Assembly: GCA_964016885.1 (NCBI GenBank)
Contig: OZ024755.1
Coordinates: 15,686,001-15,750,000 of the forward strand
DNA length: 64,000 bases
DNA from: Eledone cirrhosa
Lineage: Eukaryota
Direction: 5' to 3'
Position 1 is the stretch's first letter. Each line of letters opens with the position of its first letter. Shown in pieces: positions 1,149-51,671 of this stretch. The translations under genes were made by a program, and so were the position numbers. The notes below the pieces were generated by a model, which worked only from the letters and a program-made list of their open reading frames with translations, made no database searches and was not told the origin of the DNA.

Positions 1149-1613
1149 TACGATATTAAATAAATGGAAACTATATTTATAAAACCATATTTATTTCATT
1201 ATATATATTTCAGGGATATCATATTAAAAATATGTTATGCCTTCTTCAGACAAAATACAATATAAACAGTCTTATAAATAGATAGATTCGACATACCTTT
1301 CAACTTCGACTTCTATTTGAAAAGTTGATTTGGTAGTACTACCAAATCAACTTTTCAAATAGAAGTCGAAGTTGAAAGGTATGTCGAATCTATCTATTTA
1401 TAAGACTGTTTATATTGTATTTTGTCTGAAGAAGGCATAACATATTTTTAATATGATATCCCTGAAATATATATAATGAAATAAATATGGTTTTATAAAT
1501 ATAGTTTCCATTTATTTAATATCGTAAATATACTCCAAATACTTGTTGAGTGCTTTTATATCAGTTATAAATATTTACTCGTTGTTAACCCAACAATTTA
1601 AATAAAACTTTGC
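1149..1613 (+). mobile_element. Fold-back (palindromic) hammerhead mini-element in (TA)n; Penelope-like pLTR derivative, family P1
   Basis: Palindrome 1149-1526 centred on GGTAGT|ACTACC (1337/1338), no mismatch seen by eye; unpaired tail to about 1613; TA runs on both sides. Confidence 0.85.
1418..1483 (+). ncRNA. Type I hammerhead ribozyme (mirror copy on minus strand at 1192-1257)
   Basis: tattttgt-CTGAAGA-agg...cct-GAAA-tatata-TA-atgaaata; 8-bp stem I with 2 GU pairs, AUA triplet, overlapping AATAAA. Confidence 0.75.
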
Positions 1614-1648
1614 ATATATATATATATGTATGTATATATATATATATA

Positions 1649-1800
1649 GGGGTAGAACACTGGAAGGTAATATCTGTAGTGGTAGAGCACTGAGTCCATG
1701 GGACGAGTTAGGTAGAACTGGTAACACGACAGTTAGTTCACCATAACGAGAACAGTTGTTTCACCTTAGCGGATCTGTAATGATTATTGCATAATAGCTC
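1649..1800 (-). mobile_element. Degenerate copy of hammerhead mini-element family P7 (see 51454-51671)
   Basis: Aligns by eye to 51530-51670 in reverse; GAAACAACTGTT half kept, CTGAGGA core deleted; abuts (TA)n. Confidence 0.8.
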
Positions 1801-1949
1801 CACACTAAAGTACATATAATGCAATAAATACGATAATGTAACATCTAACTTAACATTTATTTCATATATGTGTGTGTCTGTGTGTGTGTATGTGTGACTG
1901 GAATAAGTAGAAGAATAAATAAATGAATATGAGGTAAACATGGGTAGAA

Positions 1950-2260
1950 CAGGTGGTAACCACTGTTACAATGAGGGATGCTGATGATGCGGTTGGTTAA
2001 TCAGTGTTACGAGAAGAAATACGGATGGCACGAATGATAATCACTGTTACAAGGAGAAAAACGGTATGGTAATCATTATTGCAACAAGATTACGCTTGAT
2101 AGGGATGTTAATCGATGTTACGAGGAGAAACATGTGTGGTGTGGTCTGGTGTGTGTGTGGTACGATGTGGTGTGATGTGGTGTGGATGGGTAATTACTGT
2201 GACAATGAGAACTGCGGGTGATCTGGGTGGTAATTACTGTTGTCAAGAGAATTATGGGTA
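1950..2260. repeat. Degenerate minisatellite, unit about 30-42 bp (ggtaatcactgttacgaggagaaa-like)
   Basis: Recurring taatcactgttac / taattactgt motif about 7 times. Confidence 0.6.
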
Positions 2261-2747
2261 GTTCAGTTTAGAAATACTTTAATATTCATTTGTGCAGTTC
2301 TCTTACTCTCACACTGATCGCAACACTGGAAACGCCATTTCTATTACATTGTACTTTTTTCTCTTTTCAAATTAAACATCAAAGCACAATTCACTTAATT
2401 ATTTTACATGGTTCAATAATTTGATAATATATTTTATATACTCACGAAGTGTAAAGCTTGAAAATTGTTACAAGCCACAAGAGACATCAATATGTACATT
2501 TTATATATTATGTATATTCTTATAAAGTTAATATTATAAAGTTTAATGATCAAAGATGTGAAGATAAAACTTTTTTTCTCTAAAACAATTCATCAAATTT
2601 AAAGGGAAAAGTATAAACAAAAATATTTTTGCAATCACCAAAAGGTTTTCCAAATCATTTTCACCTGGAAGGTGTGCTTCAGTGGTTTTATTAGTAATTT
2701 GGCAAATTCACCAGCGCTAACCCCAGGCCTACAGAGTTATGTCACGT

Positions 2748-2905
2748 AAATTGTTTCTAATTTAGGTTCAAGGTCAGCAATTCGAGACAGTGGTGCGGTC
2801 GATTGAATAGACAAAAGTAAATGACTGATATTTTATTTTATCGATCCATGAAGAATGAAATGTAAATATTTCCTCGACCGGATTCTAACTCTAAACGTAA
2901 AGAGC
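2748..2905 (-). mobile_element. tRNA-derived SINE family A, old copy
   Basis: Degenerate reverse complement of the TTCATCC...GTCGATAAAATAAA core and GAAACAATT tail. Confidence 0.7.
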
Positions 2906-3316
2906 TAACATAACGAGAATCATAGACTCACTTATACATACATACATGCATACATATGTGTGTGTGTGTGTGTTTACATTTGTATGAATAGAAAGCAATC
3001 AACAAATTAGGCTTCTCATTGTTCCTAATGAAAATTGAGCTATGGTAGATAACTGTTTCTGTTGTTTTATTATCATGGTGGTGGTGGGGCTGCTGCTGCT
3101 GGTACTGGTGGTGTTTTTAGTGGTGTTGCTGCTGGTGTTTGTGGCGGTGGCGGTGGTGGTGGCTGTGATGGTGTTGCTCGTAGTCGTGTTGGTGGTGGTG
3201 GTATTTTGTTTGCATCGTGTATGTGTATGTTTGCGTAAATGTTAAAGAGTTACAGATCGAGCTATATATAAATATAAAGACACACACGGTGTATTATTAT
3301 GGTTCATGTATATATG

Positions 3317-3635
3317 GTGTCGTAACTCGCGAGGGAGTCGTAGGGGCGCCGTTTCTAGGGCATTTTAAAACCTGGCGACGACCATCTCCCCTGCAGGTCT
3401 GAATACAGATGTTTTCTTCTAGAGAAGGATAGGAAGTGTGAGAAAAAGGAAGTGAAATAGAGATATAGAGGAAGAATCGATCCCAGTGCTAGGCTGGTAC
3501 TTTTTTTATTGACCTTGAATGGATGAAAGGTAAAGTTGACATCGGCAGGGTTTGAACTCAGAGAGCAGAGTATCAAAATGAATACCACAAAGCATTATAT
3601 CCTACGTTTCTAACGACTCTGCTAATTCACCGCCC
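3317..3635 (-). mobile_element. SINE family A' (family A head and core with a longer, different 3' part)
   Basis: Homologous to 20638-20950 and 35155-35500; B box GAGTTCAAA on minus strand. Confidence 0.75.
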
Positions 3636-3660
3636 TCCTCTAGTGAGTAAAGCCAGCAAA

Positions 3661-49594: not shown

Positions 49595-49651
49595 CGGTGT
49601 TTGGCCTGATCAATGTTTTGTGGATGGAACCTGTGTTCCATCCACAACGGT

Positions 49652-49982
49652 TGAAAATACAGATATAAATATATATATAGTCTATCAAAGTTCTTTCGTT
49701 GCATATCTGCAACATCATCAGTGGTACTATTATGTTTCCTCCTGTTGATGATGTTGCAGATGTGCAACGAAAGAACTTTGATAGACTATATATATATATA
49801 TATATATAATTATATTTTTATTTTTAATCGTTGGTTAATCAATGATAAACGTTGATTGCCAAATAAATTAACTGTGGGGATATAAAAGATACAGAAGCGA
49901 AAACCAACCAAACAGTGAGTGTGTTCTGTTATTATTTCTGGGAATATTATTACAACAATATGGCCCTCCCCAAGTATAACAA
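49652..49982 (+). mobile_element. Second member of family P4 with a shorter fold-back
   Basis: Inverted arms about 49670-49720 / 49746-49797; tail AAGCGAAAACCAACCAAACAGTGAG...CCCAAGTATAAC shared with 45775-45858; ends in (TA)n. Confidence 0.85.
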
Positions 49983-50135
49983 TATATATATATATATATA
50001 TATATATATATATATATATATATATATATATATATATATATATATATATATATATATGTGTGTGTGTATATATATATAGATAGGAAGGATCATTACCGTA
50101 TATGTATGTGTATATATATATATATATATATATAT

Positions 50136-50300
50136 GGAACAAAAGCAAAGAGCGCTTACATCATCAATTAATCTTTATTTGCTGACAGTGTTTCGTCCTT
50201 GCATAATTGGAGGACTCATCAGAGCGTTATGAAGAGGAATTAGATCAATAGTATAAACTCTACCGACCTATATCACAAGAACGATCCATATGTAGCACAG
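50136..50300 (-). mobile_element. Hammerhead mini-element between (TA)n runs, family P6
   Basis: 165-bp island in TA arrays with a canonical hammerhead and AATAAA. Confidence 0.75.
50181..50225 (-). ncRNA. Minimal type I hammerhead ribozyme, fully canonical core
   Basis: gct-CTGATGA-gtcct ccaattatgca aggac-GAAA-cactg-TC-agc; GUC triplet; AATAAA directly after. Confidence 0.88.
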
Positions 50301-50877
50301 ATATATATGATATATATATATATATATATATATATATATATATATATATATTATATATATATATATTATATATATATATATATATATAATATATATATAT
50401 ATATATATATATATATATATATATATATATATATATATATATATATATATATATATATATATATACACCCATATATATATGTGTGTGTGAGTACGTTTAC
50501 TGTGTGTTTGTCTCGTAAATTAATGATTTGACAATAAAGGGATCGATAGAATAAGTATCTGTACTGGGGTCGATATACTCGACAAAATCCATTCACAGCG
50601 ATGCCTCAGAATGGTCGCCCCGATCTATTGACTGAAACCCGTAAAAGTATAATAGAACAACAATTGCTCTCATGCATAAATATGAAACCAATATAATTTT
50701 AAATGTTTAGTATTTCTTGCGTTTGGAAAACATGTAGTTTAACGACTTTCTTTCTCAATAATGTTTCTTACTTCAGGGAATTGCTACTTTCCCAAATTTC
50801 CTTTTTCCTGGTCTTTTCTTTATTTTTAATTCATTTGCATGCGTCTGTTTATAATACTCCTTATATATATATATATA

Positions 50878-51192
50878 TTAGGTATAGGATTATCCTGGAT
50901 GCAGTAATGGTTAATTACTACACTGGATAGAGTTGACGTACGGTGAGGGGTTACTCAACGAGTTATGGAAGAATAGTTGAAGAAACTCAGTTCCTGATCC
51001 TTCTGTATTCCGGAGTGTAGATAAAGAATGAATAATAACAGGTAGACATCATAAAAAGGTAATTTATTCTGTGTTCTTACAAATGTTTCCACGGTGGTTA
51101 TACAGCCTAGTTATGCTATGTGCAAATTTGCACATACCACACAGAATAAATTACCTTTTTATGATGTCTACCTGTTATTATTCATTCTTTAT
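50878..51192 (-). mobile_element. Fold-back element in (TA)n with only the 3' half of a hammerhead, family P8
   Basis: 54-bp inverted repeat 51021-51074 / 51139-51192, inner 20-bp palindrome 51117-51136; minus strand reads GAAA-catttg-TA...AATAAA. Confidence 0.7.
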
Positions 51193-51209
51193 ATATATAT
51201 ATATATATA

Positions 51210-51289
51210 AATTATTTTATCTGAAGAACAGGTTGGACGTTTCTGTAAGAATCGTCTAGTTTATTGAAACCTTTGGTAATGGAATAATT
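51210..51289 (+). ncRNA. Type I hammerhead ribozyme heading a mini-element (51210 to about 51368), family P9
   Basis: aattattttat-CTGAAGA-long stem II (ttggacg/cgtctag, ttct/agaa)-GAAA-cc ttt gg-TA-atggaataatt; 11-bp stem I; GUA triplet. Confidence 0.8.
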
Positions 51290-51453
51290 ATATTCTGTTG
51301 TTTATTATGTAATTAAATAGCTCTGCAGAGCACTCTTCTTTCCTTTACCTTTACTACGGAAATACTTAACACATACACACACACACACATACACGCACAC
51401 ATACATATATATATATGTGTGTGTGTGTGTATATATATATATATATATATATA

Positions 51454-51671
51454 TAGAAGTGGTTACACAACAGTTAGTTCACCAAACCGGGAACAATTGT
51501 TTCACCTTACCGGATCCTCAGCTCATAATGCATTACGAGCTGAGGATCCGCTAAGGTGAAACAATTGTTCTCGGTATCGTGAACTAACTGTTGTGTAACC
51601 ACTTCTACCTAACTCTTCCCATGGACTGAGTGCTCTACCACTACGGTAATTACCTTCCAGTGTTCTACTAC
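51454..51671 (+). mobile_element. Fold-back hammerhead mini-element in (TA)n, family P7
   Basis: Palindrome 51454-51607 centred on TAATG|CATTA with several mismatches, a 64-bp tail, and TA runs on both sides. Confidence 0.85.
51536..51573 (+). ncRNA. Minimal type I hammerhead ribozyme (mirror on minus strand at 51488-51525)
   Basis: cgag-CTGAGGA-t cc gctaa gg t-GAAA-caattg-TT-ctcg; palindromic stem III ACAATTGT. Confidence 0.72.

Follow-up and report, generated by a model that had tools for sequence, protein, structure and literature searches.

Unique islands of sequence interrupt the (TA)n arrays of a 64,000-nt stretch of the Eledone cirrhosa genome (contig OZ024755.1, positions 15,686,001 to 15,750,000; hereafter, the window), which raises the question of whether they are mini-elements in their own right or pieces of something larger. 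An earlier note on this DNA had listed eleven of them, at 1149, 12878, 17376, 32813, 45236, 46261, 49652, 50136, 50878, 51210 and 51454, as hammerhead-bearing mini-retroelements. All eleven islands are present at these places in the 64-kb window, each between (TA)n arrays. We found that the observations were largely right and confirmed in part, and that their interpretation was partly supported: the islands are no new mini-element class. We consider it likely that they are the end pieces of many (TA)n-inserting Penelope-like element (PLE) families, and that the very short ones arose by run-off copying of the 5' part of the element's mRNA. The features of the window are listed below, with PLE and clade names as predicted; three were overlooked in the earlier note or belong to a tenth family.

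1023-1124, plus strand: tail-only piece of the tenth family, with matches in 45 fetched loci; overlooked earlier.
1151-1612, unstranded: Hydra-type PLE end in fold-back form; the arms (1151-1337 and 1338-1524) meet at a perfect palindrome, only the right one carries the 90-nt tail (1525-1612), and hammerheads lie at -1249 and +1426.
1652-1775, minus strand: additional 51454-family copy with tail (91% over 124 nt); overlooked earlier.
12879-13231, unstranded: fold-back of a Neptune-type PLE end; U3:A8 hammerhead variant at -12982 and +13062, 65-nt tail on the right arm.
17376-17613, unstranded: fold-back of a Hydra PLE end; short arm and tail on the left, 33-bp tandem duplication, complete hammerhead at +17546 (U10.1-U11.1, helix III of 4 bp).
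32812-32882, minus strand: single arm of the 17376 family (96-97% identical to it); the ribozyme is incomplete because the arm begins at U4.
45125-45170, minus strand: 3' half of a hammerhead-like motif of the tenth family; 41 copies in fetched loci.
45181-45859, unstranded: fold-back of a PLE end with a CX4CxxC linker; arms 99% complementary, cores at -45485 and +45614 with helix III damaged, 59-nt tail on the left arm.
46261-46582, minus strand: terminal part of a PLE-like unit of 2.8 kb that is non-coding and non-autonomous; the body spans 46470-46261 and has its hammerhead, a U-U variant, at -46363, with an inverted tail piece at 46469-46582.
49645-49985, unstranded: asymmetric fold-back of the 45236 family; a TA run splits the right arm, and the core at -49721 has a stem I mismatch.
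50135-50301, minus strand: single Hydra PLE end with the most canonical hammerhead (-50222; G10.1-C11.1, helix III palindromic).
50878-51189, unstranded: Hydra PLE end; tail (147 nt) and body are on the minus strand and the inverted arm is short; of the family hammerhead, which has an 85-nt loop II, the first (CUGANGA) half is missing here.
51210-51372, plus strand: older single PLE end; core at +51221 with stem II damaged.
51454-51671, unstranded: Hydra PLE end folded back on itself; its hammerhead, a U-U variant, sits at +51540, and the right arm bears the 69-nt tail.

Because 32813 belongs to the 17376 family and 49652 to the 45236 family, the islands fall into nine repeat families, with no DNA-level alignment between families. 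Six of them nevertheless share Hydra-type proteins, with fragments 32-40% identical to one Hydra-type ORF. The statement that most islands carry a hammerhead core holds for the six with a complete motif (1149, 12878, 17376, 46261, 50136 and 51454) and for three whose cores have damaged stems and fall below the descriptor (45236, 49652 and 51210), but not for 32813 and 50878, in which the start of the core is missing. Six fold-backs had been claimed; we counted seven, plus the inverted tail at 46261. In the tenth family the core reads CAGAAGA (A at position 4), and a Hydra-type GIY-YIG lies upstream in four loci (L009, L174, L194 and L256).

Hammerheads were identified with a type I descriptor comprising the core and stems I-III, the strict version of which requires a C3:G8 core. 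The strict version detected six motifs in the window (+1426, -1249, +17546, -46363, -50222 and +51540), whereas 400 local dinucleotide shuffles gave 0.11-0.12 on average and never more than 1; allowing a U3:A8 core added +13062 and -12982, for eight in total. Compensatory stem changes between subfamilies, compared by inspection among few independent subfamilies, were found in the 17376 (stem I, C-G/A-T; stem II, A-T/T-A), 1149 (stems I and II, G-C/G-T/A-T), 45236 (stem I, A-T/G-C) and 12878 families (stem II, C-G/G-C). The hammerhead fold was absent from single-strand minimum-energy folds of nine motifs (z -1.85 to +0.73). Rfam listed 150 of its 250 matches in the window, with no hammerhead among those listed, and six family loci had none that reached the gathering score. 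U10.1-U11.1 was fixed in several families and present in 19 of 62 sampled hits. In terms of predicted activity, the hammerheads are probably slow, dimer- or protein-assisted ribozymes.

Eight of the nine families are, judging from sequence, pLTRs of PLEs, each consisting of a hammerhead and a 59-148-nt tail; RT/GIY-YIG ORFs sit upstream of the pLTR in other copies or in sister subfamilies. A search for copies joined to such ORFs, suggested by the earlier note, yielded the single ORF with RT and C-terminal GIY-YIG of EN+ PLEs in eight of nine families (not 46261), the link for the 1149 and 51210 families running via sister subfamilies. The 12878 island matches, at 90-95% identity, the two pLTRs of a full element whose RT+GIY-YIG frame has 938 aa (L188), with L181-183 and L189 as further examples; in L188 and L189, GIY-YIG scored above cut-off and RVT_1 just under it (E about 1e-6). 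An intact 754-aa Hydra-type frame of the 17376 family (L397) was identified as RT+GIY-YIG by motifs and Atlas, and GIY-YIG lies upstream in L398 and L399; the 44-nt core of this family has 1,923 perfect copies genome-wide (control, 0). The 50136 island (865 family candidates) is 98% identical to the downstream pLTR of L173, a full element with a broken ORF. GIY-YIG was found upstream in 15/30 loci of the sister subfamily of 1149 (87-88%; tandem full unit, 3.7 kb), in 10/30 of the 50878 family (1,288 candidates), in 7/30 of the 51454 family, where it ends about 200-300 nt upstream (1,102 candidates), and, as a C-terminus ~300 nt upstream, in 4/30 of the 45236 family. Relatives of the 51210 island are 72-84% identical, and its coding link, via a sister family only, is L097 (~79%), where a Hydra-type GIY-YIG lies 1.3 kb upstream. 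Partial tandems give direct pLTRs in L188, L173, L337/L338/L360 and L292. In long copies the TATA box lies inside the pLTR, followed by hammerhead, tail and ORF start, and the tail passes straight into the ORF start in L173, L291, L338 and L188.

Six of these eight families are assigned to the Hydra clade and two carry a Neptune/Nematis-type linker. The Hydra-type assignment relies on motifs and Atlas look-alikes, and these ORFs gave no Pfam hit. RWK-like, DKT and CxCX5C motifs all occur in the 1149, 50136 and 17376 families, DKT and CxCX5C in the 51454 family, and CxCX5C only in the 50878 family and the 51210 sister. The top Atlas clusters are ctenophore and cnidarian proteins, with phylum known for only 1-2 members. 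The CX2-5CxxC linker before GIY-YIG was found by motif search in the 12878 family and read from the translation in the 45236 family.

The ninth family (46261) is a young 2.8-kb non-coding unit. In one locus (L292) the hammerheads are 2,797 nt apart, and the longest open frame has 119 aa. All 20 loci extending past the 46261 tail match the 2.8-kb unit at about 97-100%, and no PLE protein hit was obtained in these 20; the unit would likely be mobilised in trans. The description of the islands as non-autonomous units is therefore true only of this family, at a unit length of 2.8 kb. In the wider interpretation, the islands are indeed PLE-derived, hammerhead-bearing, (TA)n-targeted and extremely numerous, but not an independent class, since the other eight families are ends of coding PLEs.

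With 56 repeated hits in 590 kb of sampled DNA, grouped into 36 clusters, we estimate ~280,000 motifs genome-wide (bootstrap 180,000-410,000), in agreement with the anticipated very large ribozyme-motif population. The density of one island per ~6 kb is a local high of the window; the genome sample has one repeated motif per about 10.5 kb. A (TA)5 or longer run lies within 300 nt downstream of 48 of 61 sampled motifs, compared to 21% of random positions. A tandem 311-nt hammerhead repeat array was also seen elsewhere in the genome (L275).

The ends of the copies follow simple rules. The 3' ends are two fixed sites without a poly(A) tail. The tail is on exactly one arm in 111 of 118 fold-backs, and arm lengths agree in 18 of 18 (12 short-short, 6 long-long, 0 mixed); short copies within one family vary in the joint and in the tail-bearing arm. 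None of 223 tail-bearing copies begins within 2 nt of the hammerhead cut. The TA match after 3' ends averages 3.9 nt at 10 sites vs 1.0, an overestimate, since each of these sites was marked by eye where the TA run starts.

In seven families the 5' ends concentrate 23-33 nt downstream of a TATA box (background for this spacing, 87/2,700 positions), as counted from copies not fetched by a family query except as stated for 46261. In the 17376 family, 37 of 54 ends fall in a 12-nt window with the mode at -6 from the core, 29 nt behind TATAAATA (TATA at -35), and none between -8 and -56; its sister has 15/29 (mode -6, TATA -36). The 12878 family has 19/22, with the mode at -43, 29 nt behind TATAAAA (-72). 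The 1149 family ends at the A of TCACT (-89), with a TATA box 23 nt upstream, and its sister has 4/18 at -89 to -92 (TATA -112). Two out-of-window families have 6/10 at -44 (TATA -75) and 4/7 at -176/-177 (TATA -203). The 46261 end lies at -107, 24 nt behind TATAAAAT (TATA -131), a peak composed mostly of loci fetched with a query starting there, with only 2/9 unbiased ends. The 51454 ends cluster at -9 to 0 with no TATA box at the expected distance, 45236 and 50136 had no sharp cluster, 50878 had 2 unbiased copies only, and the references L051, L075, L097 and 1149b had no matching TATA; in a 12-family automatic test of 5' ends, many references were fold-backs. The description of the islands as extremely 5'-truncated thus fits their appearance, but truncation is probably not the cause, because the ends occupy a fixed, promoter-like position.

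These observations suggest the following mechanism. RNA polymerase II would start 23-33 nt behind the pLTR TATA box, and the transcript would extend past the hammerhead to cover the ORF and the downstream pLTR. By analogy with a lizard PLE in vitro (PMC11167929) and given the two fixed 3' ends, the GIY-YIG domain would nick (TA)n on both strands, and the RT would prime at two internal sites bounding the tail, aided by a few-base TA match. Priming at the downstream pLTR would give long, variably truncated copies, while priming at the 5' pLTR, before the ORF, would reach the RNA 5' end after 60-300 nt and yield an island. The two nicked strands would use both sites of one RNA, and the cDNA ends would join by short or palindromic matches into a fold-back with one tail. 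The inserts span the cleavage site, and therefore the template RNA was uncut. Short copies, without promoter and ORF start, would be dead on arrival. On balance, we lean towards the view that most short PLE remnants form a distinct class of leader-only cDNAs that extend between the transcription start and two RT start sites, the two arms of a fold-back being primed on one RNA.

With the same PLE origin, the fixed 5' ends might instead mark hot spots where an RNA structure or a short palindrome near the ribozyme halts the RT, which then turns back to copy its own cDNA; the nearby TATA box would be incidental. Joints of 17376 copies are often centred on the palindrome AGCT in stem I, the 1149 joint is a perfect palindrome, concordant arm lengths would also be explained, and palindromic inverted joints of rotifer PLEs are interpreted as self-priming in PMC3846280. 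However, the peaks lie at -6, -43, -44, -89, -107 and -176 from the core, and therefore do not track the ribozyme, yet are always 23-33 nt from a TATA box; single-arm copies share the end site (L382 and, in the window, 46261); and there are no ends just upstream of the peak and a taper downstream, as for a template end. We regard stalling as unlikely. Ordinary random 5' truncation, with peaks arising from search bias or subfamily alignment breakpoints, is very improbable. Some peaks are indeed alignment artefacts (-62 in 1149a, -46 in 1149b), and several query sets are biased toward the window's own joint. Nevertheless, among the first 30 exact 17376 matches on contig 1, which are unbiased for the 5' end, 23 end at 0-7 nt and 7 extend at least 243 nt, in agreement with the 422 of 1,923 perfect cores genome-wide that reach 13 nt further upstream. 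Random truncation is refuted for the 17376 and 12878 families.

The stronger reading of the earlier note, that the islands are independent non-autonomous mini-elements or retrozyme monomers amplified from short masters via self-cleaved or circular RNA, is doubtful in the extreme. Copy number is very high, short copies are 98-100% identical, family 46261 is non-coding, the L275 array exists, and animal retrozymes have been proposed to derive from pLTRs (10.64898/2026.07.22.740005). Against this, same-family short copies differ at the joint and tail arm and are not tandem, 0/223 begin at the cut, and eight of nine families continue into coding PLEs. MITEs were rejected, as there are no fixed terminal inverted repeats or unit length and the arms are whole-length, variable, asymmetric and continue into RT ORFs. 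Non-LTR retrozymes, as tandem 150-450-nt non-coding hammerhead units, were rejected for dispersed or inverted islands and the 2,797-nt 46261 unit; only the L275 array fits.

If most short remnants are leader-only cDNAs, the genome would preserve, in more than 100,000 natural records, where PLEs prime and where their promoters lie; it would also hold the largest hammerhead population that we found reported for any genome, and a hidden Hydra-clade radiation missed by Pfam together with a young 2.8-kb non-coding passenger. The copy statistics yield testable rules (RNA start; RT priming place; a single site for each strand and a single RNA for each fold-back; a template that is uncut), for which the intact ORFs of L188, L189 and L397 are in vitro candidates. 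If a fraction of the predicted hammerheads can cleave, intronic copies could cut host pre-mRNAs. ORF-less short fold-backs and Pfam-negative Hydra ORFs are easily misfiled as SINEs, MITEs or unknown repeats; a curated Octopus vulgaris annotation assigns 6.83% to Penelope-like sequence, leaves 15% as unknown and 1,279 SINE families without classification, and nowhere in its main text mentions hammerheads or ribozymes (PMC13282606).

Earlier papers already describe pLTR hammerheads, inverted pairs, tails and the targeting of (TA)n (PMC4209133, PMC8557442, PMC3846280). The ~280,000-motif estimate, the one-tail rule with matched arm lengths, the non-random ends of short copies, and the Hydra-clade dominance with ORFs escaping Pfam go beyond what we found in print. 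The published survey of PLE hammerheads likewise describes numerous consensus families in each genome that are unrelated to one another, motifs that mostly occur singly and come from truncated PLEs, pairs on opposite strands separated by 100-700 bp, the U3-A8 variant, an extra base after A9 and palindromic helix III. It reports 2,000-9,000 motifs per genome, compared to about 280,000 here with a different descriptor, and stresses G10.1-C11.1, whereas several families here are fixed for U10.1-U11.1, a U-U pair described as known and tolerated (PMC3088659). Counter to the TATA-linked start proposed here, the D. virilis Penelope promoter is described as internal and TATA-less (PMC2377424).

The Hydra clade of C-terminal EN+ PLEs, as described by Craig et al. 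2021 (PMC8557442), shares RWK-like, DKT and CxCX5C motifs, canonical hammerheads, (TA)n insertion, an inverted truncated copy and a one-end tail. It comprises 23 mostly cnidarian families of <3 kb with 30-40-nt tails, whereas one 64-kb window here holds at least 7 families, with units of at least 3.7 kb and tails of 59-148 nt. The 12878 family resembles Neptune-type PLEs in GLKF, DKG, the CX4CxxC linker, and RT then GIY-YIG between direct pLTRs, a clade assignment made by motifs only. Non-LTR retrozymes (PMC7229834, 10.64898/2026.07.22.740005) are similarly non-coding and PLE-linked with type I hammerheads, and the 46261 unit is flanked by tandem hammerheads; but retrozymes are tandem repeats of 150-450 nt, whereas the islands occur dispersed, as single or inverted ends, and the unit of 46261 has 2.8 kb, a PLE-type tail and inversions. 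The origin of tandem, inverted and tailed PLE inserts is described as still open by Craig et al. 2021 (PMC8557442) and Frangieh et al. 2024 (PMC11167929). In the latter, the tail of the Anolis Poseidon PLE likewise lies, in vitro, between two internal start sites of the RT; the enzyme cuts and extends both strands of the target and copies RNA that is itself uncut, and a shorter RNA 5' end gives a shorter product; run-off at the transcription start is not discussed in its main text. Poseidon primes without target homology and uses the same sites on both strands, whereas the islands have TA matches at their ends and their fold-backs use one site per arm.

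All 11 islands that the earlier note had described inside TA arrays were found between such arrays in the window (G000:C15:15,686,001-15,750,000; 35% G+C, (TA)n abundant) of this 3.0-Gb, 1,796-contig genome. When family probes were mapped back onto the window, the islands represented nine families, and three additional family pieces were detected:

1023-1124, family piece; with 45125-45170 it represents a tenth family, which is of Hydra type and very abundant, with 41 copies among the fetched loci
1652-1775, family piece
45125-45170, family piece, same tenth family as 1023-1124

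The claim that most islands carry a hammerhead core was borne out in part: the motif was complete in six, damaged in three and incomplete in two. A type I hammerhead descriptor picked out six motifs with the C3:G8 core in the window; in 400 shuffles it gave 0.11-0.12 on average and never more than 1. A search for the U3:A8 core yielded two more, both within the island at 12878. Folding the motifs as monomers did not reproduce the hammerhead, which is expected because minimal hammerheads of Penelope-like elements (PLEs) require dimers or protein (PMC4209133, PMC11167929). Among the 150 of 250 Rfam matches listed for the window there was no hammerhead; these matches were repeat- or hairpin-driven, nearly all to microRNA families and below the gathering score. 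At the gathering score, Rfam gave no match in six loci. Compensatory changes in the stems between subfamilies show that selection acts on these putative ribozymes within active subfamilies. In the 50878 family, loop II of the hammerhead is unusually long, at ~85 nt (e.g. in loci L223 and L243).

The islands are almost certainly derived from PLEs. The island at 12878 is 90-95% like the end of elements encoding RT and GIY-YIG, and its relatives include one full pLTR-ORF-pLTR copy with a frame of 938 aa. GIY-YIG sequence lay upstream on the same strand in 10/30 loci of the 50878 family, 7/30 of the 51454 family, 4/30 of the 45236 family, 15/30 of a sister of the 1149 family (87-88%) and 3 of 8 extended loci of the 17376 family, in one of which the frame was intact (754 aa). 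A complete 50136 element with a broken ORF was identified (L173), and 51210 was linked through a sister at ~79% (locus L097). Coding PLE sequence was thus linked to all families except 46261, through sisters in the case of 1149 and 51210. The ORFs beside 1149-family ends in L185 and beside a 17376-sister end in L290 came from neighboring elements and were therefore excluded from this count; L019, a candidate for read-through past the tail, joins an unrelated LINE fragment and was rejected. A first look for GIY-YIG in the genome returned 10,596 candidates. Origins of the islands as MITEs or as retrozyme monomers were also rejected, and it is well supported that the feature is real and of a known kind, with no new element class.

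Based on motifs, and on the definition in PMC8557442, six families would belong to the Hydra clade and two to the CX2-5CxxC group. Hydra-type frames had no match among Pfam or PDB sequences, and profile comparison of a Hydra-type ORF with a Neptune ORF gave a weak GIY-YIG match alone (probability 4%, E 0.01). The Hydra-type RT was not confirmed by Pfam, PDB sequence search or profile comparison. HTH_animal, GIY-YIG and RVT_1 are present in some members of the Atlas look-alikes of these frames (0.96-0.99). In the tenth family the hammerhead-like core is CAGAAGA, in which position 4 is A; 10.1/11.1 is U-U, a clear helix III is lacking, and the motif is possibly a dead or variant ribozyme. A short TA-flanked piece at 46862-46950 is 86% like the end of another TA-flanked repeat family (L276) and is possibly an eleventh PLE end.

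Each family has two fixed 3' end sites, 59-148 nt apart, the second of which lies just upstream of the ORF start in full elements. This arrangement is the PLE tail, which in vitro work placed between two internal RT start sites (PMC11167929). Among 118 fold-backs, a set without the 17376-sister row (39), which overlaps with that of 17376, the tail was present in one arm in 111, in both arms in 4 and in neither in 2, with 1 unclear; since several query sets included the tail, the count for neither is lowered and that for both is unaffected. The element sequence following the 10 end sites with a known continuation matched (TA)n over 2-7 nt (mean 3.9 vs 1.0), with the sites placed by eye.

As the simplest account of the short copies, we propose that the PLE mRNA would start at the pLTR promoter and contain two copies of the RT start region. 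Long inserts would result when priming takes place at the downstream one, and priming at the upstream one would be followed by run-off at the RNA 5' end, leaving an island. Both target strands would prime on a single uncut RNA, one per site, and the cDNA ends of the two strands would be joined via short matches. We consider the run-off step likely; the main rival is a stall-and-snap-back origin of the short copies.

Contig 1 was used to locate 5' ends of exact 17376 cores: of the first 30, 23 had their end 0-7 nt upstream of C3, and the other 7 continued for at least 243 nt. Genome-wide, 422 of 1,923 cores extended 13 nt upstream. The 17376 5' ends peak at 29 nt behind a TATA box, and the corresponding spacing was 30 nt in the 17376 sister, 29 in 12878, 20-23 in the 1149 sister, 24 in 46261 and 31 and 27 nt in two families outside the window (background 3.2%). 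In the five window-linked cases, the peak fell on or beside an A after two pyrimidines. No TATA spacing was seen for 51454, 45236, 50136 and 50878, or for four other references (L051, L075, L097 and 1149b), and in L054 only a TATA variant precedes the cluster of ends (-43..-49). Head-to-head pairs were short-short in 12 cases, long-long in 6 and mixed in none (n=18, one pair being short by pattern and long by sequence), and among 223 tail-bearing copies there was none whose start lay 2 nt or less from the cleavage site. In the 45236 family, 5' ends were spread ~50-80 nt upstream of the core, just upstream of a AAGATGGCG-type motif, which we take to resemble a YY1 site and which may mark a TATA-less start.

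In the 46261 family, the unit measures 2,797 nt between hammerheads and its longest frame is 119 aa; 20 of 20 loci that continue beyond the tail follow this unit. These 20 loci contained no PLE protein match, the best tblastn hit to ORF remnants in the unit was unconvincing (E 0.002), and no autonomous partner was found. Elsewhere, L275 (G000:C9:15,000,001-15,010,000) holds at 6150-7876 a tandem array, likely a non-LTR retrozyme, whose 311-nt units all contain a type I hammerhead; four lie on one strand, two on the opposite one.

The islands are not single-copy: a 44-nt 17376 core was exactly present 1,923 times (control, 0). First-look DNA searches returned 487 candidates for 17376, 1,733 for 46261, 865 for 50136, 1,102 for 51454, 46 for 45236 and 1,288 for 50878, totals that are not copy numbers, as 40 were scored per search. 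The genome was sampled at round coordinates from many contigs, as 59 stretches of 10 kb. In this sample the hammerhead descriptor found 62 motifs, 53 of them C3:G8 (shuffle mean 1.1) and 9 U3:A8 (shuffle mean 3.3), with 15 shuffles. The suggested enrichment near (TA)n was upheld, with (TA)5 or longer no more than 300 nt downstream of 48/61 scorable motifs vs 2,427/11,506 random positions. After removal of 6 motifs without a homologue elsewhere, the remaining 56, 6 of which come from one tandem array, gave a genome-wide estimate of ~284,000 (bootstrap 178,000-411,000).

Other features were also noted. A 193-bp element at 32598-32790, with imperfect ~30-nt terminal inverted repeats and TA at both ends, looks like a mariner-type miniature; as a separate inverted-repeat element, it was rejected as part of the PLE finding. 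Related sequence (77%) occurs at another place in the window or close to it, and a similar motif forms a 16-bp tandem at 49377-49422. Long TGG/GTG-rich repeats at 3076-11728 (including a 15-bp unit x114 at 4704-6405) contain frames of 300-600 aa and read on the minus strand as Thr-rich or Pro-rich, mucin-like exons. The 224-aa open frame at 16152-16823 we take to resemble the C-terminal zinc-knuckle/nuclease end of a non-LTR retrotransposon. Other common interspersed repeats lie at 9314-9681 and 45975-46218; the latter matches 57 fetched loci and gives the impression of being tRNA-derived. Adjoining a 50136-family insert, L172:647-3268 contains a frame of 874 aa with cysteine-rich repeats that look von Willebrand C- or pacifastin-like.

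Published work (PMC4209133, PMC8557442 and PMC3846280) describes hammerheads within pLTRs, pairs of them on opposite strands, the U3:A8 variant, tails, inverted copies and the insertion of Hydra elements into (TA)n targets. The U10.1-U11.1 variant is also known and is tolerated (PMC3088659). In Octopus vulgaris, 6.83% of the genome is annotated as PLEs (PMC13282606); the main text of that study does not mention ribozymes, and its supplement does not mention clades. The run-off reading, the one-template concordance and a large mollusc Hydra expansion were not found in the literature searched. Minimal motifs number 2,000-9,000 per genome elsewhere (PMC4209133), and axolotl retrozymes up to 120,000 (PMC7229834). 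Testable detail on PLE insertion is added by the scale of the population, by the radiation of Hydra elements, by the non-coding unit of 2.8 kb and by the promoter-bounded short copies.
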